Source of the DNA: a bacterium
GTDB taxonomy: Bacteria; Myxococcota_A; Bradymonadia; UBA7976; UBA1532
Direction: 5' to 3'
Assembly: GCA_030427205.1 (NCBI GenBank)
Contig: JAUHXC010000011.1
Coordinates: 236,016-275,942 of the forward strand
Length of the DNA stretch: 39,927 nucleotides
Shown: in pieces, positions 1 through 30,965 of the stretch
Position numbering within the stretch: the first letter of the stretch is position 1
Layout of the letters: the number at the start of each line of letters is the position of its first letter
The notes under the pieces: generated by a model
The model's input: the letters and a program-made list of their open reading frames with translations, nothing else
Database searches by the model: none
Told to the model about the DNA's origin: nothing
Program-made: the position numbers and the translations under genes

Positions 1-246
1 TCCGCTGCGGACACGGCCGAGCGGGCGGGAGACGCACAGACCGGGCTCGTGCTGCACGGGCTCATCGGGCACGCCACCGCCGAGTTGATGGGCAGCACGC
101 GGCATCCAGGGTGGCGGGCTGCCGCCCTCGACCTGCTCGACCCGGACGGGAAGACCGAGCCGCCCATCGGCCGGGAGGACGCCGTCCGACTCTTCGCCCT
201 CGCCCTGGGTATCGACCCGGACGCCGACGAGCCCGATGCGGGGTGA
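1..246 (+). CDS. Partial CDS (3' end), paralog of gene 5041..5478. Partner protein of the sigma-like gene downstream. Function unknown.
   Basis: Reading frame is open from position 1. Translation (…TGLVLHGLIGHATAELMGSTRHPGWRAAALDLLDPDGKTEP…LFALALGIDPDADEPDAG) is about 75% identical to the C-terminus of ORF 5041..5478. Same ATG..TGA overlap with the next gene as in the second copy. Confidence 0.5.
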   Translation, partial: SAADTAERAGDAQTGLVLHGLIGHATAELMGSTRHPGWRAAALDLLDPDGKTEPPIGREDAVRLFALALGIDPDADEPDAG

Positions 247-865
247 CGCGGTAGCACGGCGCATGCTGGCCGCCCTCCTGCGGCTGGAGGCTGAACCATG
301 GCCCGGGGGCTTGCGGGCCTACAGCGCGATGCTGGTGGCGCTATCGAGCCGCTGCGAGCAACACCGCGCGGCCAAGGGTGAGATCTACGACTGGCTTGAG
401 CGGGTGGCCGGCGGTGCCCTCGTGGTTCGCAACGAAGTGCGCCGCGAGTGTCTGCGCGACGCCTTCCACGAGGCGGTGGCCAGCATCGACGGGTTGCTGC
501 TGCACTTCCGGGCCGGGCTGCGGGATGACCGACGGCCGAACCTGCGCTCCATGCTCGTCGCCTGGATCGTGTGGCGGGCCGGCGACCTGCGCCGGTCGCT
601 CCACCAGCGCCACGATGACCGGCGCTCTCGGGGCGTAGACGCCACGCTGCACCTCGCCGTGACGCCCGTCGCCGACAACCCCGAGACCACCGTGATTACC
701 GCCGACATCGCCGCGATGCTGGCCGCTGACGGCTCGCCCGCTGCCCGTGCGCTACTGCTCGTCGGAGCCGGGTACAGCGTCGCCGAGGCCGCCCGCAGGA
801 CCGGTGCCAGCCGGCAGCAGGTGTACCGGGCTCGGGGGCTGCTCCGGGAGACTGTCGACGGGTGA
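236..865 (+). CDS. Sigma-70 region-4-like HTH protein (divergent ECF-sigma-like or LuxR-type regulator), paralog of 5464..6088.
   Basis: C-terminal ...ARALLLVGAGYSVAEAARRTGASRQQVYRARGLL is a classic sigma-70 region 4 / HTH signature. About 60-65% identical to 5464..6088 over the whole length. Its ATG at 236 overlaps the upstream stop at 244-246. Confidence 0.55.
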   Translation: MRGDAVARRMLAALLRLEAEPWPGGLRAYSAMLVALSSRCEQHRAAKGEIYDWLERVAGGALVVRNEVRRECLRDAFHEAVASIDGLLLHFRAGLRDDRRPNLRSMLVAWIVWRAGDLRRSLHQRHDDRRSRGVDATLHLAVTPVADNPETTVITADIAAMLAADGSPAARALLLVGAGYSVAEAARRTGASRQQVYRARGLLRETVDG

Positions 866-1820: not shown

Positions 1821-1848
1821 GCGGGTTCGAGTCCCGTTTCCCGCTCCA
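1821..1848 (+). other. tRNA 3'-end-like fragment: T-stem GCGGG, T-loop TTCGAGT, stem CCCGT, acceptor 3' strand TTCCCGC, discriminator T, CCA. Putative integrase attachment core. No foldable 5' half was found upstream.
   Basis: GGTTCGAGTCC is a canonical T-loop, followed by 7 nt, a discriminator and CCA, then immediately by a terminator. The sequence resembles the 3' end of tmRNA/tRNA genes. The upstream 60-350 nt could not be folded into a cloverleaf or a tmRNA. Confidence 0.5.
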
Positions 1849-1852
1849 CTAA

Positions 1853-1876
1853 GCCCCCGATTTCGGGGGCTTTTTT
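1853..1876. terminator. Rho-independent terminator (GCCCCCG-ATTT-CGGGGGC-TTTTTT). Bidirectional: it also ends the convergent integrase gene.
   Basis: Perfect 7-bp GC stem, 4-nt loop and T6 run read directly. The integrase stop codon lies inside the T-run on the other strand. Confidence 0.75.
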
Positions 1877-3158
1877 ATTTCGAACCTCCTGAGCCAGTGC
1901 CCGCGGAGGGCGAGGTGTTACCGGAGGTGTTACCGCTGGTGTTACCAGCCGCCGAGGCGGCCTCGACGAGCGCGTGCATGCGGTTGACCGCGTCGAGCTT
2001 CGCCTCGGGGTGGATGCCGGCGTAGAGCGTCGTCATCTTCTCCGAGGTGTGCCCCATCTGGGCCCGCACGACCGGCCCGGCGACGCCATCTTCGACCAGG
2101 GTCGTATTGACCGTGCGCCGAATGACCTGCGGCCCGCACCGCGTCGGGATGCCCGCCGCCTTGCCCGACAGCCGCAGGATCTTCTGCAGCGACGAGCCGT
2201 GGCGGTGACCACCCGTATCGGCCGGGAAGACCAGCCCAGCCGCCAGGCCGGGGTGCTGCTCGCGAACCAACCGCATGCGATGGTCGTCGAGCACCTCCCT
2301 GATCCGGTCAGTCAGGGCGACCTCGCGGGGGTTGTCGGTCTTGGTCAACTCGACATGGCCCCGCCAGACCGCCCGGCACACGTTGATCACCCCGCGCGCC
2401 GGGTCCAGGTCCTCCCACTTCAAGGCGTACAGCTCGCCGACCCGCAGGCCAGAGAAAAAGAGCATGTACACCTCGGCGTGCCACTGCGGGTAGTCCCGCT
2501 TCACCGCGTCCAAGAGCGCGCCGATCTGCTCCGGGGTCAGGGTGACCCCCTCGCGCACGTTGCGCACCTTCGACTTCGGCGGGCTCACCCGCGTCGTCGG
2601 GTCCGGCAGGCCGAACTCGGCCGCCATGTCCCGCAGCATCGTCGCCAGCACCCGGTACCACGACCGCAGAGTCGCCTGGGCGTACGGCCGGTCGAAGCGG
2701 TTCTTCTGCTGCTGCGCCCACCCGATCCAGCCGACGACGTCGGCCCGGGTCAGCTCGTCCACCCGCAGCGAGCCGATCACCGGGACGACGAATCGCCCCA
2801 GCACGTCGGCGTAGTGCTCACGAGTGCTCGGTTTCAGCAGCGACCGCTTCGTCGCAGCCCAGGACAGTACGTAGTCGGCGACGGTAGTCGTCGCCGCCTT
2901 CGGACCGCGCCTGTGGGCTGCGCTCGGCCGGACCTCGACGGCCGGCGCTTCGTCCTCGGCCAGCTCGGCCGCCAGCTCGGCGACCAGTGCTGCTCGGGCT
3001 CGCGCCGCCTCGTCGATCGACAACTCGCTCGGCAGCGCCCGCCGCCTCGCTTTCCGTCGTCCGTCGGCGTCTCGTTGCGTGGCCTGGATCCACCAACCTC
3101 CGTTCTCGAGCCGGAACACGCCGGCATACTTCGTCTTCGTCTTTCGCATCTTCGCCAT
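1875..3158 (-). CDS. int: Tyrosine site-specific recombinase (phage-type integrase).
   Basis: 427 aa. N-terminal arm-binding-like KYAGVFRLENGGWW. C-terminal catalytic region GLRVGEL … VIRRT … MGHTSEKMTTLYAG (R…R…H…Y arrangement). Adjacent and convergent to the tRNA-like fragment. Confidence 0.9.
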   Translation of the reverse strand: MAKMRKTKTKYAGVFRLENGGWWIQATQRDADGRRKARRRALPSELSIDEAARARAALVAELAAELAEDEAPAVEVRPSAAHRRGPKAATTTVADYVLSWAATKRSLLKPSTREHYADVLGRFVVPVIGSLRVDELTRADVVGWIGWAQQQKNRFDRPYAQATLRSWYRVLATMLRDMAAEFGLPDPTTRVSPPKSKVRNVREGVTLTPEQIGALLDAVKRDYPQWHAEVYMLFFSGLRVGELYALKWEDLDPARGVINVCRAVWRGHVELTKTDNPREVALTDRIREVLDDHRMRLVREQHPGLAAGLVFPADTGGHRHGSSLQKILRLSGKAAGIPTRCGPQVIRRTVNTTLVEDGVAGPVVRAQMGHTSEKMTTLYAGIHPEAKLDAVNRMHALVEAASAAGNTSGNTSGNTSPSAGTGSGGSK

Positions 3159-3756
3159 TGACCATCTCCTCGATGGCGTCCCGGCGTCGCGCGACGACAG
3201 CGCCGGTGAGCTTAGGGTCGGGGCGGTGGCCGGCGCAACGTGTCAGGAACGCGTCGACGGTCGGGGCCCGGAAGAGCCAGCGCCCGCGGGGCCCGGCGCG
3301 GCCGTCGGGCACGAGCAGGCCCTTGGCGATCCACGACCGCACGGTGGAGGTCGACCCGGCGTGGGTGTAGGCGACGACGTCCTCGACGGTCATCCAGCGC
3401 GGAGGCTCGGAGGCGGGCATTCCGGGCACCCCGAGCCCGCCGGTTGCCCGGAATGAGGCCATCGGCTGGGGCTGTGCGAGCCCGAGGTGCTCGACGATGC
3501 TCGCCAGCATCGTCTCGGCCCGGTCGAAGGGGCCGACCGGGTCATCGGTTCGGCTACCTGCCGCCCACCACCAGCCGACCTCCCCTTCGTGGATGCGCAC
3601 GGTGGCCGCGTCCGCCCCAGCCCCTGGGCCATCCTCCTTGCCCACCCGCACCGCGTAGCCCCAACGGTCCAGGCTGAGCTGGAGTTGGTGGACGTCGAAT
3701 GCGGCCCCGGTGGTGAGGCCGGTGTCGTGCAGCCGAGCATGGGACGGACGCGCCAT
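2818..3756 (-). CDS. Fusion-type protein: N-terminal module homologous to a repeated module of the giant protein (ends in FRATGGLGVPGM), followed by an excisionase/AlpA-type HTH (MTVEDVVAYTHAGSTSTVRSWIAKGLLVPDG…GRWLFRAPTVDAFL). The 3' end is uncertain: the ORF runs about 340 nt into the integrase gene out of frame.
   Basis: ATG at 3756 with GGAGA 4 nt upstream. The segment GWWWAAGSRTDDPVGPFDRAETMLASIVEHL…FRATGGLGVPGM aligns with GWYWSRAWSGDFDGVGPFDRASAMLASLVERL…FRATGADGVPGM of the giant ORF. The HTH_17/excisionase-like motif follows. No in-frame stop before 2818. Confidence 0.5.
   Translation of the reverse strand: MARPSHARLHDTGLTTGAAFDVHQLQLSLDRWGYAVRVGKEDGPGAGADAATVRIHEGEVGWWWAAGSRTDDPVGPFDRAETMLASIVEHLGLAQPQPMASFRATGGLGVPGMPASEPPRWMTVEDVVAYTHAGSTSTVRSWIAKGLLVPDGRAGPRGRWLFRAPTVDAFLTRCAGHRPDPKLTGAVVARRRDAIEEMVNGEDAKDEDEVCRRVPARERRLVDPGHATRRRRTTESEAAGAAERVVDRRGGASPSSTGRRAGGRAGRGRSAGRRGPAERSPQARSEGGDDYRRRLRTVLGCDEAVAAETEHS
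3418..3455. repeat. 38-bp palindromic element, copy 1 (CATTCCGGGCACC-N12-GGTTGCCCGGAATG), in frame inside gene 2818..3756. On the minus strand it encodes FRATGGLGVPGM.
   Basis: Read directly. Arms are reverse complements, with one mismatch in this copy. Confidence 0.8.
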
Positions 3757-3767
3757 GCTCTCCACGA

Positions 3768-3795
3768 TACGGAGGAGAATCGATACGCGGACAAG
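3768..3795 (-). promoter_or_regulatory. Conserved 28-bp upstream motif, copy 1 (plus strand TACGGAGGAGAATCGATACGCGGACAAG), 12 nt upstream of the ATG of gene 2818..3756. Putative promoter/operator.
   Basis: Same motif at 26419..26446 and 27303..27330. Each copy is upstream of a minus-strand start codon. Confidence 0.45.
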
Positions 3796-3946
3796 CCCTT
3801 AGACCAGCTGGCAGGTCGCGGTTGGTGCTGGTTGCCATTCCGACCCACGGATCAGTCAGGATTGTGAAATCGCCATCGGGACTCCGGTCCGCCATGCTTC
3901 ACCTGAGCAGATTCTGCATCCCACCAGCAGGCACAGTGGAGGGCCT

Positions 3947-4604: not shown

Positions 4605-4871
4605 CTACTCCTCCATCGATTGATCTGGCAATGGCTCGAACAGCTCCTTCACGTCGATAAGCAGCACGGCGGCCAGCGCGCCTATTGTCCGGACGTACAC
4701 ATCGCGCTCGGGCTCGTTCAGCAGCCGCTGAATCGTGCGCGGCGAGACCCCAGCTCGTCGGGCCAGCTTGGCCGTGGAGATACCGGTCTCCTCGATACGC
4801 ATCGCCAGCCGCTTGCGGACGCGGGCCAGGGCTTCGTCGGCGATGATCTGCGGGTCGGCCATGACCCGCAT
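4605..4871 (-). CDS. XRE-family (Cro/CI-type) HTH transcriptional regulator.
   Basis: …ETGISTAKLARRAGVSPRTIQRLLN… is a typical HTH_XRE signature. Small size (88-100 aa). Divergently oriented from the sigma-like module with a palindromic operator between them. The start could also be at 4862 or 4907. Confidence 0.75.
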   Translation of the reverse strand: MRVMADPQIIADEALARVRKRLAMRIEETGISTAKLARRAGVSPRTIQRLLNEPERDVYVRTIGALAAVLLIDVKELFEPLPDQSMEE

Positions 4872-4914
4872 CGTACGCGCGGCATGATTGGCGCGATATT
4901 CCGCCAAATGTAAC

Positions 4915-4946
4915 CGCCTATCCGGTCATATATGGCCGGATAGGCG
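4915..4946. promoter_or_regulatory. 32-bp near-perfect palindrome CGCCTATCCGGTCATATATGGCCGGATAGGCG. Candidate operator in the divergent promoter region between the XRE regulator and the sigma-like module.
   Basis: 11-bp perfect arms (CGCCTATCCGG / CCGGATAGGCG) around an AT-rich core, read directly. Lies in a 170-bp intergenic region between divergent genes. Confidence 0.55.
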
Positions 4947-5040
4947 TTCACTTCGTTCGCGGTTGTCGGTAACGTGCTCTTGCCGAGGGCCCGAGCTGCC
5001 CGTTCGGGTCCACCGTCGGCGACGACAATTGGAGGACACC

Positions 5041-5478
5041 GTGACGATCGATGGTGGATCGGCGCTCGAACTGCGCCGACGGATAGGAGACGTGTATCTG
5101 GGCGACGAGCCCCCGCCCGGGACGAGTCGGGCGACCTGGTTGACGACGGCGCTGGCCCGCGAGCCCGACAACCTCGAGTTTCACGCGATGGCCCGCGACT
5201 TTCTCGCCGTGATTGTGCTGTACAGGCGCCTCGCTGCCGCGCTGGACGCGGTGGAGGACGCGCCGACCGGGCTGGTGCTGCACGGGCTCCTCGGCCACGC
5301 CACCGCGGAGTTGGTCGGCGCGACCCGGGAGCCTGGATGGCGAGCGGCTGCGCTCGACCTGCTCGACCCCGACGGCAAGACGCAGGCGCCCCTCGACCAC
5401 GACGACGCAGTCCGGCTGTTCGCCTTCGCGCTGGGCCTCGACCCTGACGCGGACGGGCCGTCCGATGCGACCCACTGA
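5041..5478 (+). CDS. Hypothetical protein, partner of the sigma-like gene and paralog of the partial CDS 1..246. Could be a cognate anti-sigma or co-regulator (inference).
   Basis: GTG at 5041 with GGAGG 8 nt upstream. C-terminal 65 aa about 75% identical to 1..246. Its stop overlaps the ATG of the next gene. Confidence 0.6.
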   Translation: MTIDGGSALELRRRIGDVYLGDEPPPGTSRATWLTTALAREPDNLEFHAMARDFLAVIVLYRRLAAALDAVEDAPTGLVLHGLLGHATAELVGATREPGWRAAALDLLDPDGKTQAPLDHDDAVRLFAFALGLDPDADGPSDATH

Positions 5479-6088
5479 CCCCGCAGCCGAGCGAATGCTG
5501 GGGGTCGTGCTTCGGTTGGAGTCCGCGCCCTGGCCGGGCGCGCTGTCGGCTTACGGAGCCAACCTGCTCGCGCTGTCGACCCGGTGTGAGCGGCCAGCGG
5601 CGAAGGCCGAGATCTATCGATGGTTCATGCGCGAGGGCGGCGGGGCGCTCGTATCTCGGCATGAAGAACGCTGCGCTGATCTCCGCGACGCCTTCCACGA
5701 GATGGTCGCCAAGATCCCGTGGATCCTGCTCCACTTCCGGGCGGGCCTCGACGCGGACCGGCGGCCGAACCTCAAGTCGATGCTGGTCAGGTGGATCGGC
5801 TGGCGGGCCAACGGCCTGTACGAGTCGCGGCAGCGGCACGCCTCCCGGCGGGCACCGTATCGGCTCAGTGATCAGCTCGCCCCCGGTGGGCCCGACATCG
5901 CTGCCCAACTCGGTGAAGTCCTCGCCCTCCTCGATGGGGCCGACCCGGTCACCCGCGCCCTGCGCCTCGTCGGCCTCGGCCACACGATCGCCGGTGCGGC
6001 CCGCCTCACGGGCGTCAGCCGCCAGAAGATCTATCGAGCCCGCTCGGCCTTGCAGGCGAAGGTCGAGGACGAGCCCGATCGGGACTGA
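5464..6088 (+). CDS. Sigma-70 region-4-like HTH protein (ECF-sigma-like or LuxR-type), paralog of 236..865.
   Basis: …RALRLVGLGHTIAGAARLTGVSRQKIYRARSALQAKVE is a region-4-type HTH. Collinear homology with 236..865. Translationally coupled to the upstream gene. Confidence 0.65.
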
Positions 6089-10711: not shown

Positions 10712-11365
10712 TCAGTACAGGTCCTCGTCGTCGTCCAGCTCGATGAGCGCGTCGCCCTCGACTTCGAGTGCGCCGACGGTCATCGCCTCCTCCTCGGTCT
10801 CGCGGTGGGCCTCGGCCAGATTCTTGAGCTTGTCGACCGCCCCGCGGATGTCGTCGTCGATCTGGTGGTCGAGCTGCTCGAGGTCGTCGACGCCCAGCTC
10901 GCCCGGCTTCTTGCGGGTGATCGCGCCCAGGCCCTGCGTCGCCCCGCTGTCGGGCCCGCTCTCCATGAAGTAGATGATCGCCAGGGTCCACGCGGAGACC
11001 CCCGACGCTTCGAGCCCGGCCGCCTCACGGTGCTTGCCGTGGTGGCGCGCGCGGCGGGCGAGCACCCCCGTGATGACGGTGAACGCCACCATCACCATGC
11101 CCCGCGAGGTGGGGCTCAGCTTGGCCCACCACTCGGCGCTGCCTCGACGGGCCATGCCTTCGAGCAGCCCGAGCGCCGCGGCCGAGAGACCCGCGCCGGC
11201 GAGCTTGAAGCCGATGCGGGCGGCCTCGCCCATGTCATTGCCATTGGCGACCACCAGACGGGCGGTCTCCTCCTTCTTCTTCGCCGGCGCCTTGTTCTTG
11301 GGCCGTTCCAACGTGCGCGACATCGCTGTCTCCTCGTCGCTGGGGTTGACGATGGTGGTGAACAT
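10712..11365 (-). CDS. Small membrane protein (2-3 TM segments) with an acidic C-terminal tail.
   Basis: Its ATG at 11365-11363 shares one nucleotide with the stop of the giant gene (TGATG). Hydrophobic segments AARIGFKLAGAGLSAAALGLL, MVMVAFTVITGVLA, AWTLAIIYFM. Confidence 0.6.
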   Translation of the reverse strand: MFTTIVNPSDEETAMSRTLERPKNKAPAKKKEETARLVVANGNDMGEAARIGFKLAGAGLSAAALGLLEGMARRGSAEWWAKLSPTSRGMVMVAFTVITGVLARRARHHGKHREAAGLEASGVSAWTLAIIYFMESGPDSGATQGLGAITRKKPGELGVDDLEQLDHQIDDDIRGAVDKLKNLAEAHRETEEEAMTVGALEVEGDALIELDDDEDLY

Positions 11366-14300
11366 CAGCTCGCGCTCCGGTAGCGATGGCGCACGGTGCC
11401 GATGACGGTGCGGGGCACGCCCGCGGGGACTCTGCGTTCGTTTGCGGCGTAGGCGCCGGTGAGATCTCGGGCGGTGAGGACTGCCGCGACAGCGTTGGTG
11501 CCGTCGGCGGCGATGACGATGCCAGCGTCCTGGACCAGCTCGGTCGCGCGGACATGGACCGCGTCGCCGCCGACCAGCTTGCGGTGGCGGGTCGGGCCCA
11601 TGCCGTTGTTCTCGACCTTGACGATGACCACCAGCGGGATATCGGGCGGCACCTTCTTCTGGAGCGCCTGGGCCGCGCTCATGCGCCGGGTCTGGTCGAG
11701 CCAGACGAGGCGCTGCGCGTGGTCGATGCCGAGCACGAGGTAGCTGCCGATGGGGGTCTGGGGCGGAAGCTGCATACCGTCTCCGTAGGGATCGGGGGCC
11801 ATCGCCCGGCTCTGCGGTCGGCGATGCGATGGGTTCGTGCGGGTGCGCTGCATGCCCGGTCGCAACGGGCGGCCCCACCACCACTTGCTGGTGTCGTCGC
11901 GCAGCGCGTACTTGTGCTCGTCGTTGGCGGCGAGGCGCAGCCAGCGCGCCCAGCCGGCCTGGGTCGGAGGCAGCAACACCGCCCCCTCGGGGGGCTTGCC
12001 GCCGCGCCGATGTATGTAGACCTCGCCGTTGAGGTCGAAGGGGAAGCGGGTCTCGGCGGGGCCGTAGTTGCTGCCGAAGTAGCTCGCCCGGATGCTGGCG
12101 ATCTCGGCCTTGGCGGTGGCCTCGACCCGGGGCCACGCGGTCTCCAGCCATGCGGGTGCCGCGTGGGACCAGCCCATGGCCTGCCAGCCGCGGTAGGGGT
12201 TGGCGATGGTGCTCTTGACCAGCCGCTCGACGCCGTCGGTCCAGTTGTCGGCGACGTCGGCGGGCCGCGTGGGCGAGACGTCGTCGTCCGTCTTGTCGCG
12301 CGCGACGTTGGCGACCTTGTGGCCCTCCCACGAGGCGTCCCCGGCGAGGCGCAGCCAGATCATGCGGTGCGTACCCTGCCAGCCGAACCGGCCGACCTCG
12401 TACCAGTCGTCATCCCAGCGCAGCCACGAGCCGGGGAACAGCGGCGGGGTGCCTTGCCGAGCGAGGATGTCGTGCGCGCCGGCCTTTCGCGCGGCGGCGA
12501 GCAGCCCGGCCCACGGCCAGATGTCGCGGTCGATGCGGGCCACGGCGTCGAACGCGGCGTCGGCGCCGGCCAGCAGCCGCTCGGCGCGCTCGGGGTCGAC
12601 GGCGTCGCGAGCCTCGACGAGCTGGCTCGCGCCCGATTCGAGCAGCTTGATCGCCCGCGCGGCTTCATCGGCGCGGCGCTTGGCCTCGGCAGCCGCCCGC
12701 AGCTTGTCCAGGCGCTTGCGGGTCTCGTCGGGCGTACGGCTGATGAGCAGCAGCACCTCGTCGGGGCCCAGCTCGAGATCTGCTCCCGGGTTGGCGATGG
12801 CGTCCGAGCCCTCCAACAAGGCGCCCATCCAGCCCTGCTTGCCCTGGATGAGGTTGAAGCGCAGCCCGTCCATTGATCGCCGCGAGAAGTAGTAGCGGAT
12901 GGCGACGGTCGAGAGCGTATTTCCCTGCCGTACCGCCCGCCCGTTGCGCTGGTTCAGCGTCGCCGGCTCCCACGGGAGATCGGCGTGGTGGATGGCGCAG
13001 GTGCGCGTCTGAAGGTCGAGGCCCTCGTAGGCGATGCTGTTGGCGATCACCACGTCCAGCTTGCCCTCGTTGAAGCGGTCGGCGATGCGCTGTCGGGCGT
13101 CGCTGCTCTTGGCGAGCTGGCCGTTGAGTACGCCGATGCGGCTCGCCTTCAAGCCACGCTTGACCAGCGTCTCCTTGAGCCATCGGTGCCCGGCGATGGC
13201 TTGTAGGAAGACTATGTGTCCGCAGAAGGTGTTGCCGGCGATGTAATCGGCGATGGCATCGAACTTCGGGCTGTTCGGCCGGTAGCCCTGCGCCGACTTG
13301 TAGTCGAGGCCCCGGTCCATCTCGGCGTGCACGGCTACCAGACCCATGCGCGCCAACAGGCCCAGCACCTTGTTCGACTTGTCACCCCGTCGCATCGCAT
13401 CCAGCTCGGCCTCGATGCGGGTGACGTAGGTCTCGTACTTGTCTTCCTGCGCCTCGTCCATGTCGACCTCGACCAGCTCGGTCGTGGGCTCGGGCACTTC
13501 GAGGCCGATGTCGGGGGGCTGGATGAACTCGCCCCAACGCAGCAGGATCGCCTTCAGCTCGTCGAGGCGCTGGAAGCCGGTCACCGCGGGGCGCTCGCTG
13601 GCCTCCATCGTGGCGTCGATGACGAGCCGCGGTTCGATCGTCAGGAAACGGCTGATGAACGCCTCGGGGTCGTGGATCCCGTGGTCGCGCCACAGCTCGC
13701 CGTTGACGTAGCTCCACAGGTTGTAGAGTTCGAGTGGGCTGTTCTTCGCGGGCGTCGCCGAGAGCAGCACGACGAAGCCGTCGCGGGCGCGGACGTCCCG
13801 GGCCCGGGCGTCCAGATTCCACGCGCGCTTGCTCGCCGATGACTGCCCCATGAACCGCGGGATGCTGCCCTCGCGGTTCTCCGGGCTGTGCAGGCCCTTG
13901 TAGTTCTGCGCTTCGTCGACGATGAGCAGATCGACGCCCAGCTCGGACCAGCGGATGTCATCGGCCTTCCAGCTCGGCGGCAGCTCCATCATCTGCGCCA
14001 GGAAGGCCCGCACGCCCTGCTCGAGCAGCGCCTGCTGCCGCTCGGATGGGTTCGTGCGGTTGCGCGCCGTGCGCTGGGCCAGCCGGACCGACCGCTGAAG
14101 CTCGGTGGCGCCGGCCGCCAGCCGCTCGAACTCGTCGGCGGTGATCCCGGTGCGCATGAACGCTGCGGGGGTGACGAGGGCCAAGTCGTAGAGCCCTGCG
14201 GCGAACCGGCGCCACTTCACCTCGCGGTCGTCCTTGTTGTCCGGCCCGTACTTCAGCCCGCCGTGCCGGCCTGGGGTCGCCTTCTCGCCGATGGTCACTA

Positions 14301-17300
14301 CTGCGTAGTCGGGCAGCGCCTTGTGGATGTCGCGCTGCCACTTCGACACGAGGCTGTTCGGGACCAGGATCACGGGCCGGCGAGTGCCCACGTTCTGTCG
14401 GGCGAGGGCGACCGTCGCGCAGGCGGTGAACGTCTTGCCAACGCCGACCCCGTAGGCCGCGACCATGCCCCGCTGGTCCACCGCGCGCCGGGCGCCCGCG
14501 TTCTGGTGGGGGTGGGGGGTGATCTGGGCGCCCCAGCGGGCGAGACGCAGCGGGTCGCCCGAGTAGCGGCGCTGCACGAACCCGCGGTGCGCTCGGCGAT
14601 ACGCCTCGGCCACGCGGTCGCGAATGTCGGGCCGGGTCGACAGGAACGCCTTGAACCGGCGCTCGAACTCGTCGGCCTTCGCCCGCCGGACCTTGTTGAT
14701 GTCCTCCGACTTGGGCTTCTTCGGCCGGAAGACGTACTCGTCGTGGTTGATGTAGCCCAAGATCAGCCGGATGGACGACGTGTTCGCGAACCGGTCCGTG
14801 ATGTCGTCGTAGCTGTACTTCTCGCCACGAAACTGAACGACGCCGTCCTTGCGGTCGATCGCGACCGGCGTCTTCTCACCACGCCGGAAGGAGCCCAGGA
14901 ACGCGCCGATGACGCCGAGCGGGAGCCACCCGTCCCGCAGGCTGATGCGGTCGGCGATGTCGGCGAAGCTCACGTCGCCGATCGCGTCCTCCAACTCCTT
15001 CCGCTGGCTGTCGGCAACGTGCCGATAGTTGCTGGGCAGGGCTTCGAGGCGATCGAGGCGCGTCCACAGGTTGCCGGACAGGTAGTCGTCGCGCGGCAGC
15101 AGGCGGTTGGCGTCCAGGCGCCAGCCCCTGCGCAGCAGATCGTCGACGTTGGCGACCCGGTCGAGGGGCACGCCGGCCGGGTGCATCGTGAGCAGTTGCC
15201 GGGCGTCGCTCACATCCAGCGCCAACTCGGGGATTCCGACCGGCGCTTCCAGCGTCGCCAGCCGCCGGCCGAAGATCTCGGCGAAGGCGTCGAGGGCGCC
15301 GGCGAGTTCGGCGTGCAGCATCATCCGCCGGGTCGTATCCGATGCCTCATACTGCGCCACCCGCTGCGACAGGACCGCGGCGAGCTGGCCCTCGTCGGGG
15401 CCCTTCGGCGGGGCCGGCGGGGGATCGGGCTCGGTCGGCAGGCACACCGCGCACGACGGATCGGCCACGGGCGCGATCAGGTGGCGCTCGCCGTCGGCGC
15501 GCTCGATGACCGTCGGCGCTGTGCCCGCGCCGAGCAGGAGCCGGCCAGTGCGCGCGCCGTTGAGCGCCATGCGCAGCCGGGGCAACTCGAAGGACCATTG
15601 GCCGCTCGCCGATCCCGGGGCGACCCGCGCGCCGCGGAGGAGGGTGCCGTCGAGCAGGAGCCGCACGCCGTCGACCTCGAGGGCCGCCGGGCTGGTCGTC
15701 ATCTTGCGCAGCCGGTTGAAGAGCGCGCCGAGCGGCGCCGGGTCGACGGTCGCCACCGGATCGGCTGGGCGCAGCAGCTCGGCAGGGTCGGGGTAGTCGA
15801 CATCGAGCGCCCGGCCATCGGGGTCGACCACCCGCATGGGGTCATCCTCGGCGCCGTGGGCGAGTTCGATGAGGTTCTGCCCGTCGGTCGCGAGCACCAG
15901 CCCGCCGCCGACGCGGATGCCACGCAGCACGGGATCATTGGGGTCGGTGAAGAACTTCGCCCGCTCGATGGCCGCCGCCAGATCGGGCGCGACCTGGCGC
16001 TCCATCTCCACGTCGCGCAGCCCGGCCGGCAGCCCTGCCTTGCGCGGCTTGCGCGGCTTCCACGCCCGGCCACTGTCCATCTCCAGGTTCGCGAACCCAG
16101 GCGCGAGCGTCTTCTTCGGCTGCGGCTTCGCCGGGCCCTCGTCGTCGGACTCGATCGAACGGCGCGAGATGATGGGGCGTCCGGCCACTTCGACGAGCTG
16201 CTCGACGTCGCTGAAGCGCATCGGCGCGACCATGTGCCGCTCGCCGTCGGCCCGGTCGAGGACCAGCAGGTGGTTGCCCCACTCGATCCCGCGCTCGGTA
16301 TCGCGCCCGAGCACCCGCACGGTGACCGACCCCTTGGCCTTGGCGAACATCGGCCGGAGGTAGGCCCGATCGAGCTTGGTCAGCAGGTTGGCCCCGCGCG
16401 CCGGCCCGATGTGCCGCTGCAGCCGCTTGTTCGCCGCCGAGCCGGGCTCGACGTAGAGCTGCCCGTCATGCACCCGCCAGATGGGGTCGCTGGTCAGCGC
16501 CTTGTTCAGCAGCGCGTCCCGCAGCGCCTTCACGTCGGCGGTGGCGACGACCGCAGGCTCCATCTCCTCGATCCGCTGCAACAGATCGACGGTCATGTTC
16601 TGGTCGGCGGTCGGCCAGCCCTCGGCCAGCTTGCCCTTGCGATCGAGCCACTGCTGCTCGCCCCGGTGATCCGTCGGGATCTCGACCAGCCGCACCATGC
16701 TGCGCCCGATGGCCCGACCCTGCGTATGCCAGACCGTCGTCAGCAGCGGCGCTGTCTTCTGCGTGCCCGCGAACCGCACCGCCCGGCGCTGCGCGGCGGC
16801 CTTCGACTGCCGCGGCCGGCTCTCGTCGATCGGCGGCATCTTCGGCGCCGGCAGGGCGATCGGCTCCACCGGAGGCAGCAGCCCGCGGTCGTCGCGCTCG
16901 GAGACCCCGAAGCGCACCTCAGCGACCTCGACCCCGTGGCGCCGGGCGTGGCGCTCGAACGCCTCCTGAACGCGCTCGGTGACCATGTGCGGCGCGGGGT
17001 AGGCCTCCCGGACCTCGATGACCCACGGCCCACGGTGGAACCCGGCCAGGACCTGCATCGCCCCGTCGAGGTTGAGCGCCTGCGGCTGGAGTGTCGACGC
17101 ATCGAACAGCGGGATGACGTCGCTCGACCCCGCCCGCCACGCGAATACGCCTCGGCCGGGCGGCACCGTCGGCTCGCCACCCGACTGCACAGGCTCGACC
17201 GGCTGCGCCATCTCGAAGCGCAGCGCCTCCGCAAACCGCTTCACGTCGCCGGGCCCGCCGCCCGTCTTCTCCATATGCGCTGTCGCGACGGCTTGCGCCG

Positions 17301-20300
17301 CCTCCGACGGGTGGATGCCGTCGGCGACCAACTCGGCGAAGACCTCCTGCGGCGTACTCCAGTCGAGCCCGTGCATCGCGCGGCCGAGCAGGCCCGGCGT
17401 GCTGCGCACCACCTCGGCCTCGACCACCGGCGTCGACGCTCGGCTCGGCCGCGCCGGCCACCCCTTCGCTGGCCGGCGGCGGAGCTGAAGCGCGGGCGCG
17501 GCACCACCCCCGACGTCGAGGCTCGCCCCCGGCGCGAGCGCCTGCACCTTGGCGCACAGGTGCCGGTCCTCGGCGTTCGACGCGCAGAAGTCGGCGACCG
17601 AACTCTCCCACGCCATCGTCCCGTCGGGCTCGTAGCCTCGGAGCGCATCCGGGCGATCGTCCACCGGTCGGACCGACCGCGGGGTTTCGCGCAGCACCTT
17701 GCGCCCGGCGTCCGTCAGCCGCAGATGCACGGCCTTCGGCGACACCGCCACAACCCGGAGGAAGCCGGCCTGCTCCAGATCGGGCAGGTGCGCCCGCACC
17801 GGATCGTCGCCGAGCACCATCGCGCCCCACTCGTGCACCGACACTAGATCCGCGAGCGGCGGGCGCTGCATATGGGCCAGTCGGGCACCGAACTGCGGCG
17901 CGCGCACGTCGACCTTACGCGCCTTGCGCCGCCCGCGCTGGGCCTGGATCCGATCGTTCCCGGCGACCACCGCGTCCCGCCCGCGACGCAGCCGGGCGAC
18001 GTAGTCCCACACCATCTCGCGGGTGAGCCCGTCCCGCTCGAACTGCCCGGTCTGCTCGTACCGCTGCGCCTTGCGAATCGTCGCCTTCAAGCCTTCGAGG
18101 GCCTCGCGCAGCAGCTCTCGCCGGACCTTCTTCGTACGCGGGCTGCGCACGATGTCCTCGACCGCCGCTCGCCAACCGTCGGCATCGGTCAGCGGCACCG
18201 CGCCGCCCTGGAACCGCTTGCCCCGGTTGTGCGCCTCGTCGACGTCCCGCATCAGCGCCCGCAGCGTGCGGAACGACGGCGTGGCGATGGCGTCGGCGTA
18301 TGCATCGACGGATGGCATGGGCGTGTCAGCCGGCGGCTCGGCCTCGTCAACGACCCGCGGCGTGAAGTCCGGCAGGCCCGCGTACTCGCCGATGACCTCC
18401 TCACCGCCCCAGCGGCCGGACGGCTTCACTTCGCCGAGGACATGGCTCGGGTGGTCATCGAAGTAGCGCCCGCTGACGAACAGATCGTCCGGCGACGCCT
18501 TTGCGCCCGAACGCGCCCGCAAGAACACGACGTCGAGGGTCAGCCGGGCTCCGGGGAACAGCCCCGACGGCAGCCGGAAGGCCGCGAGCAGATCGGCCCG
18601 CTCGTCGACCCGGCGCCGCAGCTTCCCGTTCGATGATCCCGTCAGGAAGCCGCCGGGCACTAGGAAGGCACCGACACCGCCCGGCCGCAGCAGCGCCATG
18701 CCGCGCAGGATGAAGTACTGGTACGCCGCCTTGACCCGGAACCGGCGATCCTTGTCCTCGGTGATCTGCTCGCCGCGGGGGCCGTAGGGCGGGTTCGAGA
18801 CGATCACGTCGAAGCGGGCGTCGGGGTTCGCCTGGACCCAGCTCTCGAACGAGCCGACGTGCACCGCCGTCGAGGGCGTGGCGGTCTGTCGGAGGATGAG
18901 CGCCGACAGCGGCGCCAGCTCGACCGCGGTCCACTGCCAGTCGGGGAAGCCCGCGACATGCACGAACCGCCCGACGCCCGCCGAGGGTTCGAGGGCCTGG
19001 ATCGCCCCCGGCTTCACCAGCCGTCGAACGGCCGCGGTGATGTCGGCGCAGACCTTCCACGGCGTGTAGTACTCGTGGACCAGCGCCCGCTTGTTCGGCA
19101 GCGGGATGCCCGCCGGCCAGTCGTCGCGCACCTTGTCGATGCTCAGGCCGCCCCAGCCGCTATACTGGCGCATCCGCTGCACCTGGGCCGCGGTCGGCGT
19201 CGTTCCCGATCGCTCCAGCGCGTGTGCGAGCTGCACCGCGAGGATGTTGCCCCGCGTCCGCGCCGCGGGCGTCTCGGGGGCCTCGGGCCACTCGCTCTCG
19301 GCGCCGCCCGACGCCATTCCGGGCAACCCGTCCGATCCGGTTGCCCGGAATGGCGTGTCCGCCGACCCGTTCACCGCTGCCAGGAACCGCCGGGCTTCGG
19401 CCTCCGAGCCGAATACGAACCCGGGCACCGCGCCCCCGCGCCGATAGCGGCTGAAGTAGCCCGATGGCACCGGGCTATCCGGGTCGGCGGCCTGCTTGGC
19501 CAGCACCGTGAGGGCCTTGTACCGCTCGCGCGGCAGGCGCTCGATCAGCCGCACGGTCCAGATGTCGTGCCCGTCGCGGGTATGGCGACCGGCGATCAGC
19601 TCGAACCCCTCGGGCGTCTTTGGGGCCGTGGGGGTCGGGGCAGGCTCTCTCGTCGGCGCCGAGGGCTGTACCGCGACCGGCGCGGGCGGTCGCGGCTTGG
19701 GCTGAGCTGGCTTGGGCGTCTTGGGCGTCTTCGGCGCCTCCGCTGGCCCGCGTACCAGCCGAGGGCGTGGACCGCCGCGCCGCCGGGCCATGCGGAACGC
19801 GCGGTTCAGTACGTCCTCGGCCTTCTCCCGGGTCCCATCGGGCAAGTCCTCGACCAACCGCCGCGCCGTCTCGGCGAAGAAGGCGTCGATCACCTGATCG
19901 TTCGTCGCGCCGCGAGGAGCGACCCAGCTCATGGTCCGGTGCTTGTCGGTCCAGACCTCGAATCCGCTCTCGACCCGCTCGCGCCGGAAGCCCGACGTCA
20001 GCCGGCGCCGCAGCCCGCCGCGATCGAGCCCCCGCTTGCCCTCGCCGCGCGAGATGCGGATGGCGTCGAGCAGCCGCGCCCGCTGATCTTCATCCAGCCG
20101 CAGCCGGTAGCGACGCATCGCTGTGTTGATCGGCTCGACCGCCAGCAGGAACCCGGGGTCGGCCTCGACCGCCTCGACCTGACCAGCGGGGTTCACGTCG
20201 ACGAACTCCACCGGCAGGTGCAGTTCGAGCCCGTCGGGCAACGCGCCGATCGGGTAGACGGCCGTACCGCACACGACCCAGACACCGCGGGTCGGCCGGT

Positions 20301-23300
20301 TGAGCCGGGCCGCAGCCTCGCGGATCATCCACGCGGTGTGACCGGCCTCGGCCACCTCGGCGGGCGGCTCGCCCACGTCGACCCGCAGGGTTTGCTGATC
20401 GCCCTTGGGCATTCCGGGCAACCCGACCTCTCCGGTTGCCCGGAATGCCGGGGTCGCTGCCGGCTGGTCGTAGAGCTCGAGGGCGGCCCGCCGCGCGGCG
20501 GCGAAGCTGCGATGATCGGGGCCGACGATCTTCCAGCGGCCGCCGACCGACTGCTCGACCCGATAGGCGCCACGCTTGCCGCTCTTGCTGAACCGCACGC
20601 GCTTGTCGGGCGACGTGTAGACCGGCGGCTTCGTACCGCTGCGGGTCCACGTCTTCATCGCCGCCTGAACGTCGAAGACCGAGCGGGGTTGCGCCGCCGG
20701 ACCGTCGTTCGCGGTCAGCGCGGCGATCCGGTCGGCCAGCCACTTCTTGCGCTCACCGATGCCCTTGCCGGCGAGCGGCGCGAGCAACGTCAGCCCGAGC
20801 GCCTGCGCCGGCTTGGCCAGCAGCTCGACGTAGGCCCGCGACGCGATGACCTCGACCACGGCGCCCCGCCCAGCGAGCCGCGCGAGCGCGGGGCTCACCT
20901 GCGCGACCCACGCGGCGCGCTGCTCGCCCGTCAGGTCTTGCGCCCGCTTGTCGTACGGCTCGACGGGCTCGTCCGGCCCGACGACGCCGAGCCCGGCCGA
21001 GACGATCGCCCACGGCAAGCCTCGGGCCTCGGCGTACCGACGGCGCAGATTCCACAGCGCCCCGCGGTACAACGCCTGAGCTGCGACCGGCCCGGAGGCG
21101 ACCTTGCTCTTCACGCACCCGACGAGCACAAACGTCGGGTCAGCGGCGGACTCGGCGGCCATTCCGGGCACCCCGTCCGCTCCGGTTGCCCGGAATGCAG
21201 CACCGTCCAGGGGCAGCCGCTCGACAAGGCTCGCCAGCATCGCGCTGGCCCGGTCGAACGGCCCGACCCCGTCGAAGTCACCGGACCACGCGCGGCTCCA
21301 GTACCAGCCGTCGTCCTTGAGGTTGATGGTGACCGTGGTCTCGCCGCCGCCGTTGTGGCACGTCACCACCCGCAGTGTGGCGGTCATCGCATGGAAGACC
21401 GGGCAGCCGTGGTCGCGCAGCCGGTACTTCAGCCAGCGCAGATCGAAGCCCGACCCCTCGTTGGTGGGGGGCTCGAAGAGCGCGGTGACCAGCCGGCCGA
21501 CGGACTGCCCGATCTCCCGATCGGTGCCGGTCTGGCCGTTGTTCTCCAAGGTCCAGGCAGGCTTGCGCTGCCACCAGCGGTCGCTGATGACCTCGGCCTT
21601 AGCCAGTCGGGCGACCACCGGCGCGTCGGCCAGTGGCGAGAGGTCGATGCGGTCGCCCACCTTCGCGACGGCGAGCAGCTTGCGCATCATCCGGTGAGTC
21701 ACGGCGCTGGCGGCCCGGCCAGCGTCATCGATCTCGCCCGTACGGGGGATCGACGCCAGTGGCCCGATCTCGGCCGACGGGGGAGGTTGCCCCGTCGCCT
21801 CGACCGCCGCCCGTCGAGCAGTGGCGAACTTCTCCGGCCCCGCGTGGATGGTCCAGGTCCGGCCGGCGCCGAGTCGCAGCACGTACCACCGCTTGCCCGC
21901 GCGTAGCACCACGGTACCCCCGTCGGGCGCGATGTGGACCTTCGTCCCGTCGCTGGGGTGCACGACCGATCGGAACTCGTAGGCGTTGGCCGCCTTCGGC
22001 GCGGTCTGCCGAGGCCGCAGGGGCACGGTGTTGTCGACATAGGCCGCGTACCACCCCAGGTTCACGAGGTTGACGACCCGGGCGGCGGTCCACCGCTGCC
22101 CGCTCTGGTCGCGGAAGACGGCGCCCTCGAACTGCGCCTGCTCACCCGTCGCGGTCAGCGCCCATCGCGGGCCGTCGGGCGCGGCCACGAACAAGCGTCG
22201 CACCTTGCCGACCTCGCTCAATGTCGAGACCGGGTGCGCGTGGGGTGGGATCGACGGCGCTGGCCCCGGATGCGGCGGTGCGCCGTAGATCTCATCGGGC
22301 ACCGGCGCCGCCGGCTCGTCGACCGCCGGGATGGTCGGCGGCGGGCTCTCGGCCATCACCTCGGCCGCCCGATCCCGCGCGGCGATGTAGAGCTGGACGT
22401 CCGCTGCTGTAGCCATCGGCTGGGCCAACTGCTCGCGGGCGAAGGTGTGCACCGTTCGAGCGGCGTCATGCCGACCTTGCGCCTGCTCCTTCCTGGCGAT
22501 CCGCTCGTCGGCCCACCGGCGACCCTTCGCCGCTCGCACCTGGGCCGCGTCGAGCCAGCGCCACGCCCGCTCTCCGTCGACGGTGGTCGCCTCGAACGGG
22601 ATCGGCATGTCGTGCGTCTCGCGCATCTGCACGGTGCGCTCGACCAGTCGCTTGATCTGAGCTGGCGTCCAGCCGCACCGCTCGTTCAGCGCCGAGACCC
22701 GCACGGTGCCGGCCTCGGCCACCGCGATGAGGAACCGCCGCTGGTCGCCGTCGAGTACGTGGTCGAAGGCCGCCGCCGCCGGCCAGTGGGCGGCCAATCG
22801 CTGCGACGCTGCGGGCCCGACCGCGCGGGCCACCGCGTTCATCGGGATCAGCACGGTGCGCTCACCACGCCGCTTCGGCCGGAACCACGCTCGCCCCGTG
22901 GGCCCGTCGACCCGCCAGGGCCCGTGCCGCTCTCCGCGGCGGTCGACGATGCTCATCAGCCCGTCGTCGTGAACCTCGACGACCTCGAACCGGTTGAGGA
23001 TCTCGGTCACGAACCAGTCGCCGAGCGCCACCGTGAGCGACTCGCTCGTAGCGGTTTCGGCCTCGGCCACCGGCTCGGGCGGCTTCAGCCCCATCCACTC
23101 CCACGTCCGCTCGCCCCGTAGTCGACTCTGCTTCACCGGCAGAGGCATGCCCTTGCGCTTGAGCCCGCGCAGCCGCTTCAGCGCCCGGTCGATCGCCTCG
23201 ACCGACCACCCCAGCCGCTCCGTCAGGTCCGACTCGGTGGCGAAGTTCAGGTCGGCGAAGGCGATCATCAGCCGCCGCAGCTCCGCATCGAGCCAGCCAC

Positions 23301-24174: not shown

Positions 24175-24745
24175 CGCAGGATCCCGTGGGCATTGATGGT
24201 GAAGTTGCTCGGCCCGCGCTCGATCTGCCCGGCCACCAGCCGCGGCCCCGGCCGGTCGAACGGATGGCGCCACCATGCGTCGGTCGAGCCCTTGCGGGTG
24301 TCGTAGACGATCGCGTCGATCACGCCCGCCGGGCTCTCGGGCGCCACCCCGCCCTCGGCGACCAGCCACAGCTCGTCCATGACCGCCGACGTCACGAGCC
24401 ACACCGGCCCACCGCGCGGCTCGACCTCGACCCCGCCCCGCAGCTCGATGCGCACCAGCCGGCCCAGCTCGACCAGATCGCCCGGCGCCCCGTCCGGCCG
24501 CCGCACCGCGCGCTCACCGCCCGGCTCCAAGCCCCAATGCAGCAACCGCCACGTCTCCTCGACCGGCTGGCGCACCTCGACCGACTCGACCGCCGCCTCG
24601 ATCCCGGCGACCGCCGCCCGGACTCCGGCCCCCACGAGCCGCAGCCCATCGCCGCGCTCGACCCGCACCGCGCCCTCGGGCACCAGCTCAGTGCCGTCGA
24701 CGAGGCGCAGCCGGACCAGCTCGCCGATATCGGTCCAGCGCGCCA
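24171..24745 (-). CDS. Hypothetical protein (191 aa), translationally coupled to the giant gene.
   Basis: ATG at 24745 overlaps the upstream stop (ATGA). Its stop overlaps the giant-gene ATG (ATGA). The longer N-terminal extension in the ORF track is Arg/Gly-rich and overlaps a better ORF, so it was discarded. Confidence 0.5.
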
Positions 24746-26418: not shown

Positions 26419-26446
26419 TACGGACGGGAATCGATACGCGGACCAG
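26419..26446 (-). promoter_or_regulatory. Conserved 28-bp upstream motif, copy 2 (TACGGACGGGAATCGATACGCGGACCAG), 11 nt upstream of the ATG at 26408.
   Basis: 25/28 identical to copy 1. Same distance to the start codon as copy 1. Confidence 0.45.
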
Positions 26447-26482
26447 ACCAAAAATCGGGGGTCCGCGATTTTTCTCGGCGGG

Positions 26483-27302: not shown

Positions 27303-27330
27303 TACGGACGCGAATCGAGACGCGGACCAG
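27303..27330 (-). promoter_or_regulatory. Conserved 28-bp upstream motif, copy 3 (TACGGACGCGAATCGAGACGCGGACCAG), 35 nt upstream of the ATG at 27268.
   Basis: 25-26/28 identical to the other copies. Confidence 0.45.
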
Positions 27331-27389
27331 CACAAAATCAGCGCAAATCGACGATTCTCGGGCGGTTCGGCCCGAACGCCTCAGCCAAG

Positions 27390-30797: not shown

Positions 30798-30965
30798 GAG
30801 GACACCCCGGGTTCCAGTGGCAGGAGCGAGGCTATCACCCGGGTGATGGTCACGCCAGAGACCTGCCCGCGAAGGCCCACCGATCCAGGAGTTCGCCCTT
30901 GCCTGAGACGGTGACCGGTGCTCTCTTGGCGGTCGGCATCAGCGCCGAATCTGACAGGAGGCCCG

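Follow-up and report, generated by a model that had tools for sequence, protein, structure and literature searches.

The window, that is the whole stretch of 39,927 nucleotides that was analysed, has a G+C content of 69% and carries, at positions 1804 to 1848 of its forward strand, an exact 45-nt copy of positions 32 to 76 of a tRNA-Gly(CCC) gene, without the 5' half. This fragment, to which we refer as the att core, reads TTCCCAAGCTGAAAGTCGCGGGTTCGAGTCCCGTTTCCCGCTCCA, beginning with TTCCCAAGCTGAAAGTC and ending in CCA, and comprises the anticodon loop TTCCCAA (with CCC at positions 34 to 36), the 3' strand of the anticodon stem, the variable loop, the T-arm, the acceptor strand, the discriminator and the CCA end. 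An earlier note on this DNA had recognised a tRNA 3' portion at 1821 to 1848, and direct reading agrees: this part, GCGGGTTCGAGTCCCGTTTCCCGCTCCA, consists of the T-stem and loop, a 7-nt acceptor strand, the discriminator T (U in the RNA) and CCA. The identity extends further left, to 1804, giving 45 nt instead of the 28 originally noted, and of the two origins then considered, tRNA and tmRNA, only the former stands. A tmRNA, also in its two-piece form, was ruled out as a candidate, the sequence being that of tRNA-Gly(CCC) with a discriminator U and no tmRNA model scoring.

The last 45 nt of the intact tRNA-Gly(CCC) genes in five genomes (L011-L015), among them two Myxococcota MAGs (L014 and L015), match 1804-1848 exactly, as does the intact tRNA-Gly(CCC) gene of a further homologous locus, L022, over the same 45 nt. 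A chance match is excluded, as none of 100 shuffles yielded the fragment at up to 3 mismatches. Together with the G+C content, the exact tRNA identity makes it probable that the DNA comes from a member of the Myxococcota. There is no synteny between the window and the flanks of the tRNA-Gly(CCC) genes in the two Myxococcota MAGs, an exact 47-nt search of the JGI metagenomes gave no match, and the GTDB representative genomes do not contain the locus of the window itself. Directly 5' of the core, the window has GGATA where the tRNA gene has TCAGC, so that the anticodon stem lacks its 5' partner and cannot form. In line with this, and with the previous observation that no 5' half can be folded upstream, ARAGORN finds neither a tRNA nor a tmRNA over the entire 39.9-kb window, and Rfam returns no match in it at the gathering score; at a relaxed threshold (E ≤ 10), its sole match is an 18-nt T-arm hit to the tmRNA model, at 11 bits (cut-off 47), and no tRNA is matched. 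The second direct-repeat copy of the 3' end, which the earlier note had proposed to look for, is not present in the window, where a search of both strands with the 28-mer and with a 22-mer from the left part of the fragment gave no further occurrence (none is expected by chance). A degenerate second fragment at 1679-1694, about 140 nt upstream, was considered and rejected, its alignment score of 20 lying within a window background that reaches 27.

Terminator, short repeats and integrase

The core is followed by an intrinsic terminator (1851-1882, forward strand), supplied by the element, whose hairpin (1851-1872) has nine pairs, seven of them G-C, and runs into TTTTTTATTT. The stop codon of a convergent integrase gene, TAA (the complement of 1875-1877), sits within the T-run; both the strong hairpin and this placement of the stop codon had been described before, and the sequence bears them out. 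Abutting the integrase stop codon, the terminator would serve to end a regenerated tRNA. Of 16 related loci, 15 show an equivalent hairpin and T-run behind the tRNA end; the stem sequences differ (e.g., GCCCTGG/CCAGGGC versus GCCCAGG/CCTGGGC).

Three perfect GGTGTTACC repeats with 12-bp spacing, at 1914-1946, lie inside the integrase ORF, in its 3' tail (peptide GNTSGNTSGNTS). We regard them as putative arm-type integrase-binding sites, forming the P' arm of the site. Homologs carry a repeated 8-10-mer of their own at the same place, and analogous repeats are found in all relatives examined. GGTGTTACC occurs nowhere else in the window: there is no copy to the left of the core (1-1803) at up to one mismatch and no pair elsewhere in the 39.9 kb, and the left flank holds no 12-bp-spaced repeat pair of any sequence. 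The arm repeat of the L022 type (GTCCCGGTTT), tried as a candidate for this flank, is absent from it.

The integrase itself (1875-3158, reverse strand, 427 aa) combines a PF00589 domain (70 bits against a cut-off of 27.1, residues 207-380) with a SAM-like N-terminal domain, which confirms the convergent tyrosine integrase previously proposed to adjoin the fragment. The residues R239 (Arg-I), K273 (Lys), R347 (Arg-II), H370 (His-II) and Y379 (the tyrosine nucleophile) are invariant in 18 homologs, and all of them except K273 sit in motifs that pair with the active-site motifs of XerD and XerA in alignments to PDB entries; on our reading of these aligned motifs, R239, R347, H370 and Y379 would each have a numbered equivalent in the XerD active site. 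The first catalytic histidine, that of the His-x-x-Arg motif, is absent, and Q344, near-invariant across the integrase clade, aligns there with respect to XerD, XerA and IntI4. This position varies among tyrosine recombinases, and Q344 is therefore no bar to membership in PF00589. No Pfam arm-binding domain was detected in the protein.

The clade is rare, with 26 homologs at E ≤ 1e-10 among 5.8 billion proteins, and the integrase shares at most 29% identity with any phage record. DNA near-identical to that of the window was found neither in the phage collection (50,697 records) nor in the plasmid collection searched. A near-identical integrase (reported at 100% identity, with differing flanking DNA) lies on a 1.5-kb Logan contig (L018) that ends inside the fragment.

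Regulatory genes, left flank and cargo

We assign the DNA on the integrase side of the core to an integrative element, element B. Upstream of the integrase, an ORF at 2818-3765 contains a xis-like winged-helix segment (3235-3396, reverse strand), which is conserved directly upstream of the integrase in L001, L005, L007 and L019-L022. Its match to HTH_17 (E = 2e-4, 21.9 bits) stays under the cut-off of 27, so that the xis-like gene suspected earlier is plausible while the Pfam threshold is not reached; judging from sequence, it is probably a recombination directionality factor. The XRE regulator noted at the same time is confirmed as a Cro/C1-type repressor (4605-4907, reverse strand; HTH_26 with E = 1e-8, and HTH_3), and it occupies the same position in L022 and L025-L028. 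It is followed by a module of two forward-strand genes (4888-6088), 3.4 kb inside element B, which we call X (ORF 4888-5478, with a probable start near 5040) and Y (5465-6088), the latter with a C-terminal HTH and a weak resemblance to ECF sigma factors. The arrangement XRE-X-Y is conserved in L022, L023 and L025-L033, and the X-Y pair always adjoins an XRE repressor. It is a module restricted to islands of this kind, where it takes the integrase side (L022, L025-L028); in L025-L028 it stands beside BREX-like cargo.

A diverged second copy of this module opens the window (1-865, forward strand), with X' (1-246, truncated where the window begins) and Y' (236-865) sharing 79% and 53% amino-acid identity with X and Y, respectively. 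The two copies are collinear at a constant offset of 5226, with 80% nucleotide identity over 210 nt; with the X protein of L022, X' shares 81% identity. Between this module and the core lie a forward-strand gene, Z (1022-1627), without a match in Pfam, PHROG or NCBIfam, a hairpin (1635-1662) and the 141-nt non-coding left flank of the core. The X'-Y' module appears to belong to a neighbouring element, element A, of which the stretch 1022-1803 would form the right end.

The minimum visible span of element B, 3768-27333 (reverse strand), is bracketed by copies of a 31-nt element-specific, promoter-like repeat (family D5; 3768-3798, 26419-26449 and 27303-27333), each upstream of a leftward gene. 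Its most prominent cargo is an ORF of 4345 aa (11365-24402, reverse strand, GC3 0.90) with DUF6884, N6-adenine methylase and SNF2 helicase domains, the methylase and helicase domains being of generic type. Among the ORFs tested in element B we recognised no virion or packaging, conjugation, mobilisation or known defence-system genes, and PHROG and Pfam gave only a weak C1q-like match and one PHROG of unknown function, neither of them structural. The genes beyond 27333 look chromosomal and include two PI-PLC-like genes, an FGE-sulfatase-like gene, a methyltransferase and an AcrB-family pump. The gene content and the 31-nt repeat that ends at 27333 lend partial support to an element reaching to roughly 27.4 kb, as first suggested, but neither an att repeat nor an arm-site pair marks that end: BLAST and Rfam at a relaxed threshold found no att copy or tRNA remnant at 27.25-27.8 kb. 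In addition, a gene at 30918-32693 has 77% DNA identity to the gene directly beside the X-Y module in L022, in opposite orientation. Because of this gene and the missing att copy, 27.4 kb can serve only as a tentative right limit of element B. Its far end, which would be expected to show a GGTGTTACC pair and another copy of the 45 nt, is absent from the window, and the element is therefore either longer than 38 kb or truncated. A 591-aa gene is absent from IMG/VR, and a palindrome is absent both from the 118 fetched loci and from IMG/VR.

Att states in homologous loci and the nature of the junction

In homologous contigs collected from ENA/Logan, IMG/VR and JGI, the geometry is constant, with the 3' end of the integrase gene facing that of the tRNA sequence and a hairpin terminator and short repeats between them. 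Two states can be told apart, both represented by integrase homologs of 35-55% identity. In the first, seen in at least 10 distinct loci, an intact tRNA gene stands beside the integrase; it is mostly a tRNA-Gly, of the GCC type in L005 and of the CCC type in L007/L009, L022, L043, L044 and L048, with tRNA-Val in L035, tRNA-Arg in L051 and L063, and tRNA-Ala in L056. This is the integrated left junction, attL, and in the four loci of this state examined for it (L005, L007, L022 and L035) the repeat of the integrase side is missing beyond the tRNA. In the second state, seen in seven loci, of which four are IMG/VR viral contigs, the tRNA is represented by a 3' fragment that begins with the anticodon loop, and the cognate P' repeat recurs upstream of it as a pair with 11-12 bp spacing, at about -117/-105 relative to the start of the core in L034, L036, L037, L040, L042 and L046 and at -103/-91 in L066. 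By its sequence features this is the element's own attP, with putative arm-type repeats on both arms in all seven genuine cases; that of L046 lies inside a 458-kb contig.

The window resembles neither state. It has the fragment without an intact tRNA, and is therefore not a simple attL, and it lacks a cognate repeat on the left, so that the site is not an attP either. The DNA to the left of 1804 is not the tRNA 5' half and, with no GGTGTTACC in it, not element B's own P arm; as the flank has no recognisable arm-site pair, a P arm there would have to be decayed or that of another type of integrase. Two sets of relatives have a comparable junction. Among the relatives whose sequence continues past the core, L021 is the closest; its integrase shares 75% identity with that of the window, and it has the same 45-nt fragment and GGTGTCACC/GGTGTTACC repeats on the integrase side, while its left flank carries a 12-bp-spaced pair of GTCCCGGTTT, the P' repeat found beside the different integrase of L022. 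Since the left-flank pair is of the L022 type, L021 is a junction of two element types. In L001-L004, from four samples and with 53% identity, the fragment likewise has a non-cognate left flank. The state of a single element is exemplified by L022, in which EF-P and a 1563-aa gene are followed by the intact tRNA-Gly(CCC), the integrase, a xis-like gene, a 288-aa gene, XRE, X and Y, the X-Y module lying 4.8 kb from the tRNA with the integrase between them.

Judging from this one junction, we consider it probable that 1804-1946 is an internal chimeric att site ('attI') in a tandem array that two integrative elements have formed at a tRNA-Gly(CCC) gene. In each element, a copy of positions 32-76 of the tRNA, bordered by arm-type integrase sites, would make up the attP. 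The integrase would act on the chromosomal tRNA gene by strand exchange in its anticodon-loop region; the gene would be rebuilt from the host 5' part and the element's 3' part and terminator, and the original 3' part would come to lie at the far end. If another element then entered the same tRNA, a bare 3' fragment would be left between the two elements, flanked on the left by the P-arm side of the first and on the right by the P' arm and integrase of the second. Accordingly placed, element B would comprise the terminator, the arm-type repeats, the integrase, the xis-like gene, XRE, X-Y and the cargo, and the right end of a related element A would comprise X', Y' and Z. That diverged copies of one switch module flank an att core on both sides is in keeping with two adjacent, related elements. 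The reading draws on the identity of the fragment, the duplicated left module and the lack of a P arm of element B on the left, as observed in the window, and on the att geometry observed in the family. We infer the presence of an intact tRNA-Gly gene and of the integrase of element A beyond the left window edge, as well as the order of insertion and the activity of the sites.

The fragment identity and the geometry of the homologs uphold the earlier proposal of an att-type fragment left by integrase-mediated insertion at a mobile-element junction. That proposal had allowed for either a left border or an internal junction of tandem elements; integrase-side borders in homologs carry an intact tRNA, and here X'-Y' DNA stands in place of the 5' half, which favours the internal junction over a simple left border.

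Other histories could produce a bare fragment. Element B may have inserted alone, with the tRNA 5' half lost later through a deletion, insertion or rearrangement that was not site-specific, leaving a dead, decayed island. This would account for the fact that no integrase of a left-hand element is visible in the window, that the left flank is without a recognisable arm-site pair and that B's far att site is missing from the window, as expected of a decaying island; that such islands erode is seen in L022, where the X-Y module runs into another gene without an att copy. We nevertheless hold this course of events to be unlikely, as the break falls exactly at tRNA position 32, where identity begins in the genuine attPs and in L021, and as the left DNA is itself of island type, with its X'-Y' module. 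We regard it as very unlikely that an element not integrated through this site, being either free or carried in a larger replicon by another route, has its attP here, such that both flanks belong to one element. The combination of fragment, terminator, arm repeats and convergent integrase does give it the look of an attP, as in the seven related loci, several of them viral contigs, and L046 provides an example of a genuine attP within a long contig (458 kb). Yet the cognate pair, lacking in the window, stands about 90-117 nt upstream of the core in 7 of 7 genuine attPs, one element would need two diverged X-Y modules, and the right third of the window has genes of chromosomal type (the AcrB-family pump, the methyltransferase and the FGE-sulfatase-like gene).

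A misassembly, in which two copies of the 45-nt repeat were confused and the left flank of the one joined to the right flank of the other, would be in keeping with the observation that short-read contigs with such integrases often stop inside the tRNA (L018, L006, L008, L010), and hence that the repeat breaks assembly graphs. At 45 nt, though, the repeat is below ordinary read length, and the same type of hybrid junction was assembled independently in L021 and in the four samples of L001-L004, so we rate an artefact as highly improbable. To a working tRNA or tmRNA gene with an overlooked 5' part we give practically no credence: the perfect T-arm, acceptor strand and CCA followed by a terminator are what such a gene would offer, but ARAGORN and Rfam find none, the bases before 1804 cannot pair with the 3' strand of the anticodon stem and, as to a tmRNA, the sequence is tRNA-Gly(CCC).

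Beyond the chimeric att site itself, it is conceivable, and we put it forward tentatively, as rather doubtful, that the junction represents an undescribed, Myxococcota-associated family of islands targeting tRNA-Gly. Such a family would be characterised by a rare integrase clade with Gln at the first His, a rigid layout of the attP, in which the pair on the P arm stands ~105-117 nt upstream and the P' triplet overlaps the tail of the integrase, and an XRE-X-Y switch in which the sigma-like Y might drive the promoter-like motif, with a short regulatory element accreted to an island of at least 25 kb that bears the 4345-aa methylase-helicase.

Insertion of islands at tRNA genes is a well-known mode, and our understanding of it is unchanged by this locus. 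What the locus adds is a precise boundary coordinate, 1804, for one edge of a mobile island, with mobile DNA on both sides, which aids the annotation of the genome; it also identifies tRNA-Gly(CCC) as a hot spot at which a rare integrase clade inserts. Asking whether the P' repeat recurs ~105-117 nt upstream of the core separates attPs, attLs and chimeric junctions from sequence alone, and this arm-repeat test may be reusable for the integrase family.

Comparison with known systems

Islander lists 125 tandem arrays among 3919 islands, and an anticodon-centred attP is its commonest class (PMC4383910). The locus is like the class 'A' tDNA islands of that survey in that a tyrosine integrase adjoins the target, a bare 3' fragment marks the junction, and the element brings along the 3' part of the tRNA, from its anticodon loop onwards, by which the gene is rebuilt (PMC4383910). 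As in the Islander definition of an island, a fragment in the correct orientation is accompanied by an integrase (1804-1848 on the forward and 1875-3158 on the reverse strand), whereas the intact tDNA and second fragment that bound a full Islander island are not in the window. The integrase clade also sets it apart from class 'A', being rare and at most 29% identical to phage records.

Chimeric internal att sites ('attI') have been described in accreted elements (PMC5704250), and the locus is like the resulting arrays of the form attL-element1-attI-element2-attR (ICESt1/CIME, IME_Sag2603_tRNAlys) in having a bare target fragment between related, diverged elements, with the left side from one element and the integrase-bearing right side from another (PMC5704250). 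Unlike in arrays of the ICESt1/CIME type, a single junction is seen and the ORFs tested include no conjugation or mobilisation genes.

With the heterobivalent attP of lambda-type systems, the family shares short repeats on both arms (in its genuine attPs), a putative xis-like gene upstream of the integrase and an integrase transcribed towards att; at the window, the P' repeats of such a site are present and the cognate repeats of the P side absent. It differs from the lambda type in the lack of a Pfam arm-binding domain, in the Gln in place of the first catalytic His and in the P' repeats within the tail of the integrase ORF. An att site that overlaps the 3' end of the integrase gene is also found in the myxobacterial phage Mx8, which targets a tRNA gene. 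The core of Mx8 is internal to int, with the consequence that integration changes the C-terminus of Int, and the phage uses a tRNA-Asp; in the present case it is the arm repeats alone that reach into the tail of the ORF, and a tRNA-Gly is targeted.

Repeat sequences embedded in coding regions

The integrase gene of the island (element B; 1875-3158, minus strand) contains the arm-type repeats, the inferred integrase-binding sites, within its own reading frame. Since the frame crosses these repeats, the C-terminal tail of the protein (region 1875-1960) reads GNTSGNTSGNTS, translated from the GGTAACACC repeats. Tails resembling it are found in the integrase homologs P0002-P0004 and P0010; given this similarity, the repeat peptide probably arises only incidentally, from conservation of the DNA sites.

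A 38-nt palindrome, CATTCCGGGCA[A/C]CC-N10-GGTTGCCCGGAATG, of which no copy is expected by chance, occurs four times in the window (3418-3455, 19315-19352, 20410-20447 and 21160-21197), once in the ORF containing the xis-like segment and three times in a giant ORF. Each copy is translated, in frame, from the minus strand as the peptide FRATGxxG[L/V]PGM. The copies use the codons GCA, TTG and GGA, which would be expected to be disfavoured in a genome of 69% G+C; their use is a hint that the DNA itself, instead of or besides the peptide, is under constraint. The palindrome was found neither in 118 related loci nor in IMG/VR. The giant ORF itself is a single frame encoding 4345 aa (11365-24402, minus strand; GC3 of 0.90) and encompassing DUF6884, Eco57I-like N6-adenine methylase and SNF2 helicase domains, separated by long stretches for which no match to anything was found.

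Putative regulation and genes in the right part of the window

A conserved promoter-like motif, reading TTTTGgnCTGGTCCGCGTaTCGATTCnCGTCCGTA on the minus strand, directly precedes three of the element's leftward genes (3768-3798, 26419-26449 and 27303-27333). Regulator Y, which belongs to the element's own X-Y gene pair and weakly resembles ECF-sigma factors (E = 0.008), may act on this motif.

Further to the right, a gene encoding 591 residues, whose family is not known (30918-32693, plus strand), shares 77% DNA identity with the gene adjoining the X-Y module in the MAG GCA_030426085.1 (locus L022; 11118-12852, minus strand). Its orientation relative to the tRNA is inverted between the two loci, and no att copy was found between Y and the counterpart in L022; the gene may be cargo of the island or the mark of a rearrangement. 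Two PI-PLC-like genes (27778-28854, plus strand; 34199-35257, minus strand), inverted paralogues with about 53% amino-acid identity, bound a stretch of lower G+C (62-66%).

att sites in other loci

In the 458-kb metagenome contig Ga0209212_1000010 (L046), a genuine attP, composed of a tRNA-Gly fragment flanked on both arms by cognate ACTCCCAA repeats, lies internally, at about 11.1-11.7 kb of the locus; with its attP so placed, an element of this integrase family is carried by a large replicon without use of that att site. The identical 45-nt 3' part of tRNA-Gly(CCC) also occurs in a Desulfovibrionaceae MAG (L017, 3935-3979), where no tRNA was called; the presence of this bare fragment in an unrelated lineage suggests that other elements target the same tRNA-Gly(CCC) site.
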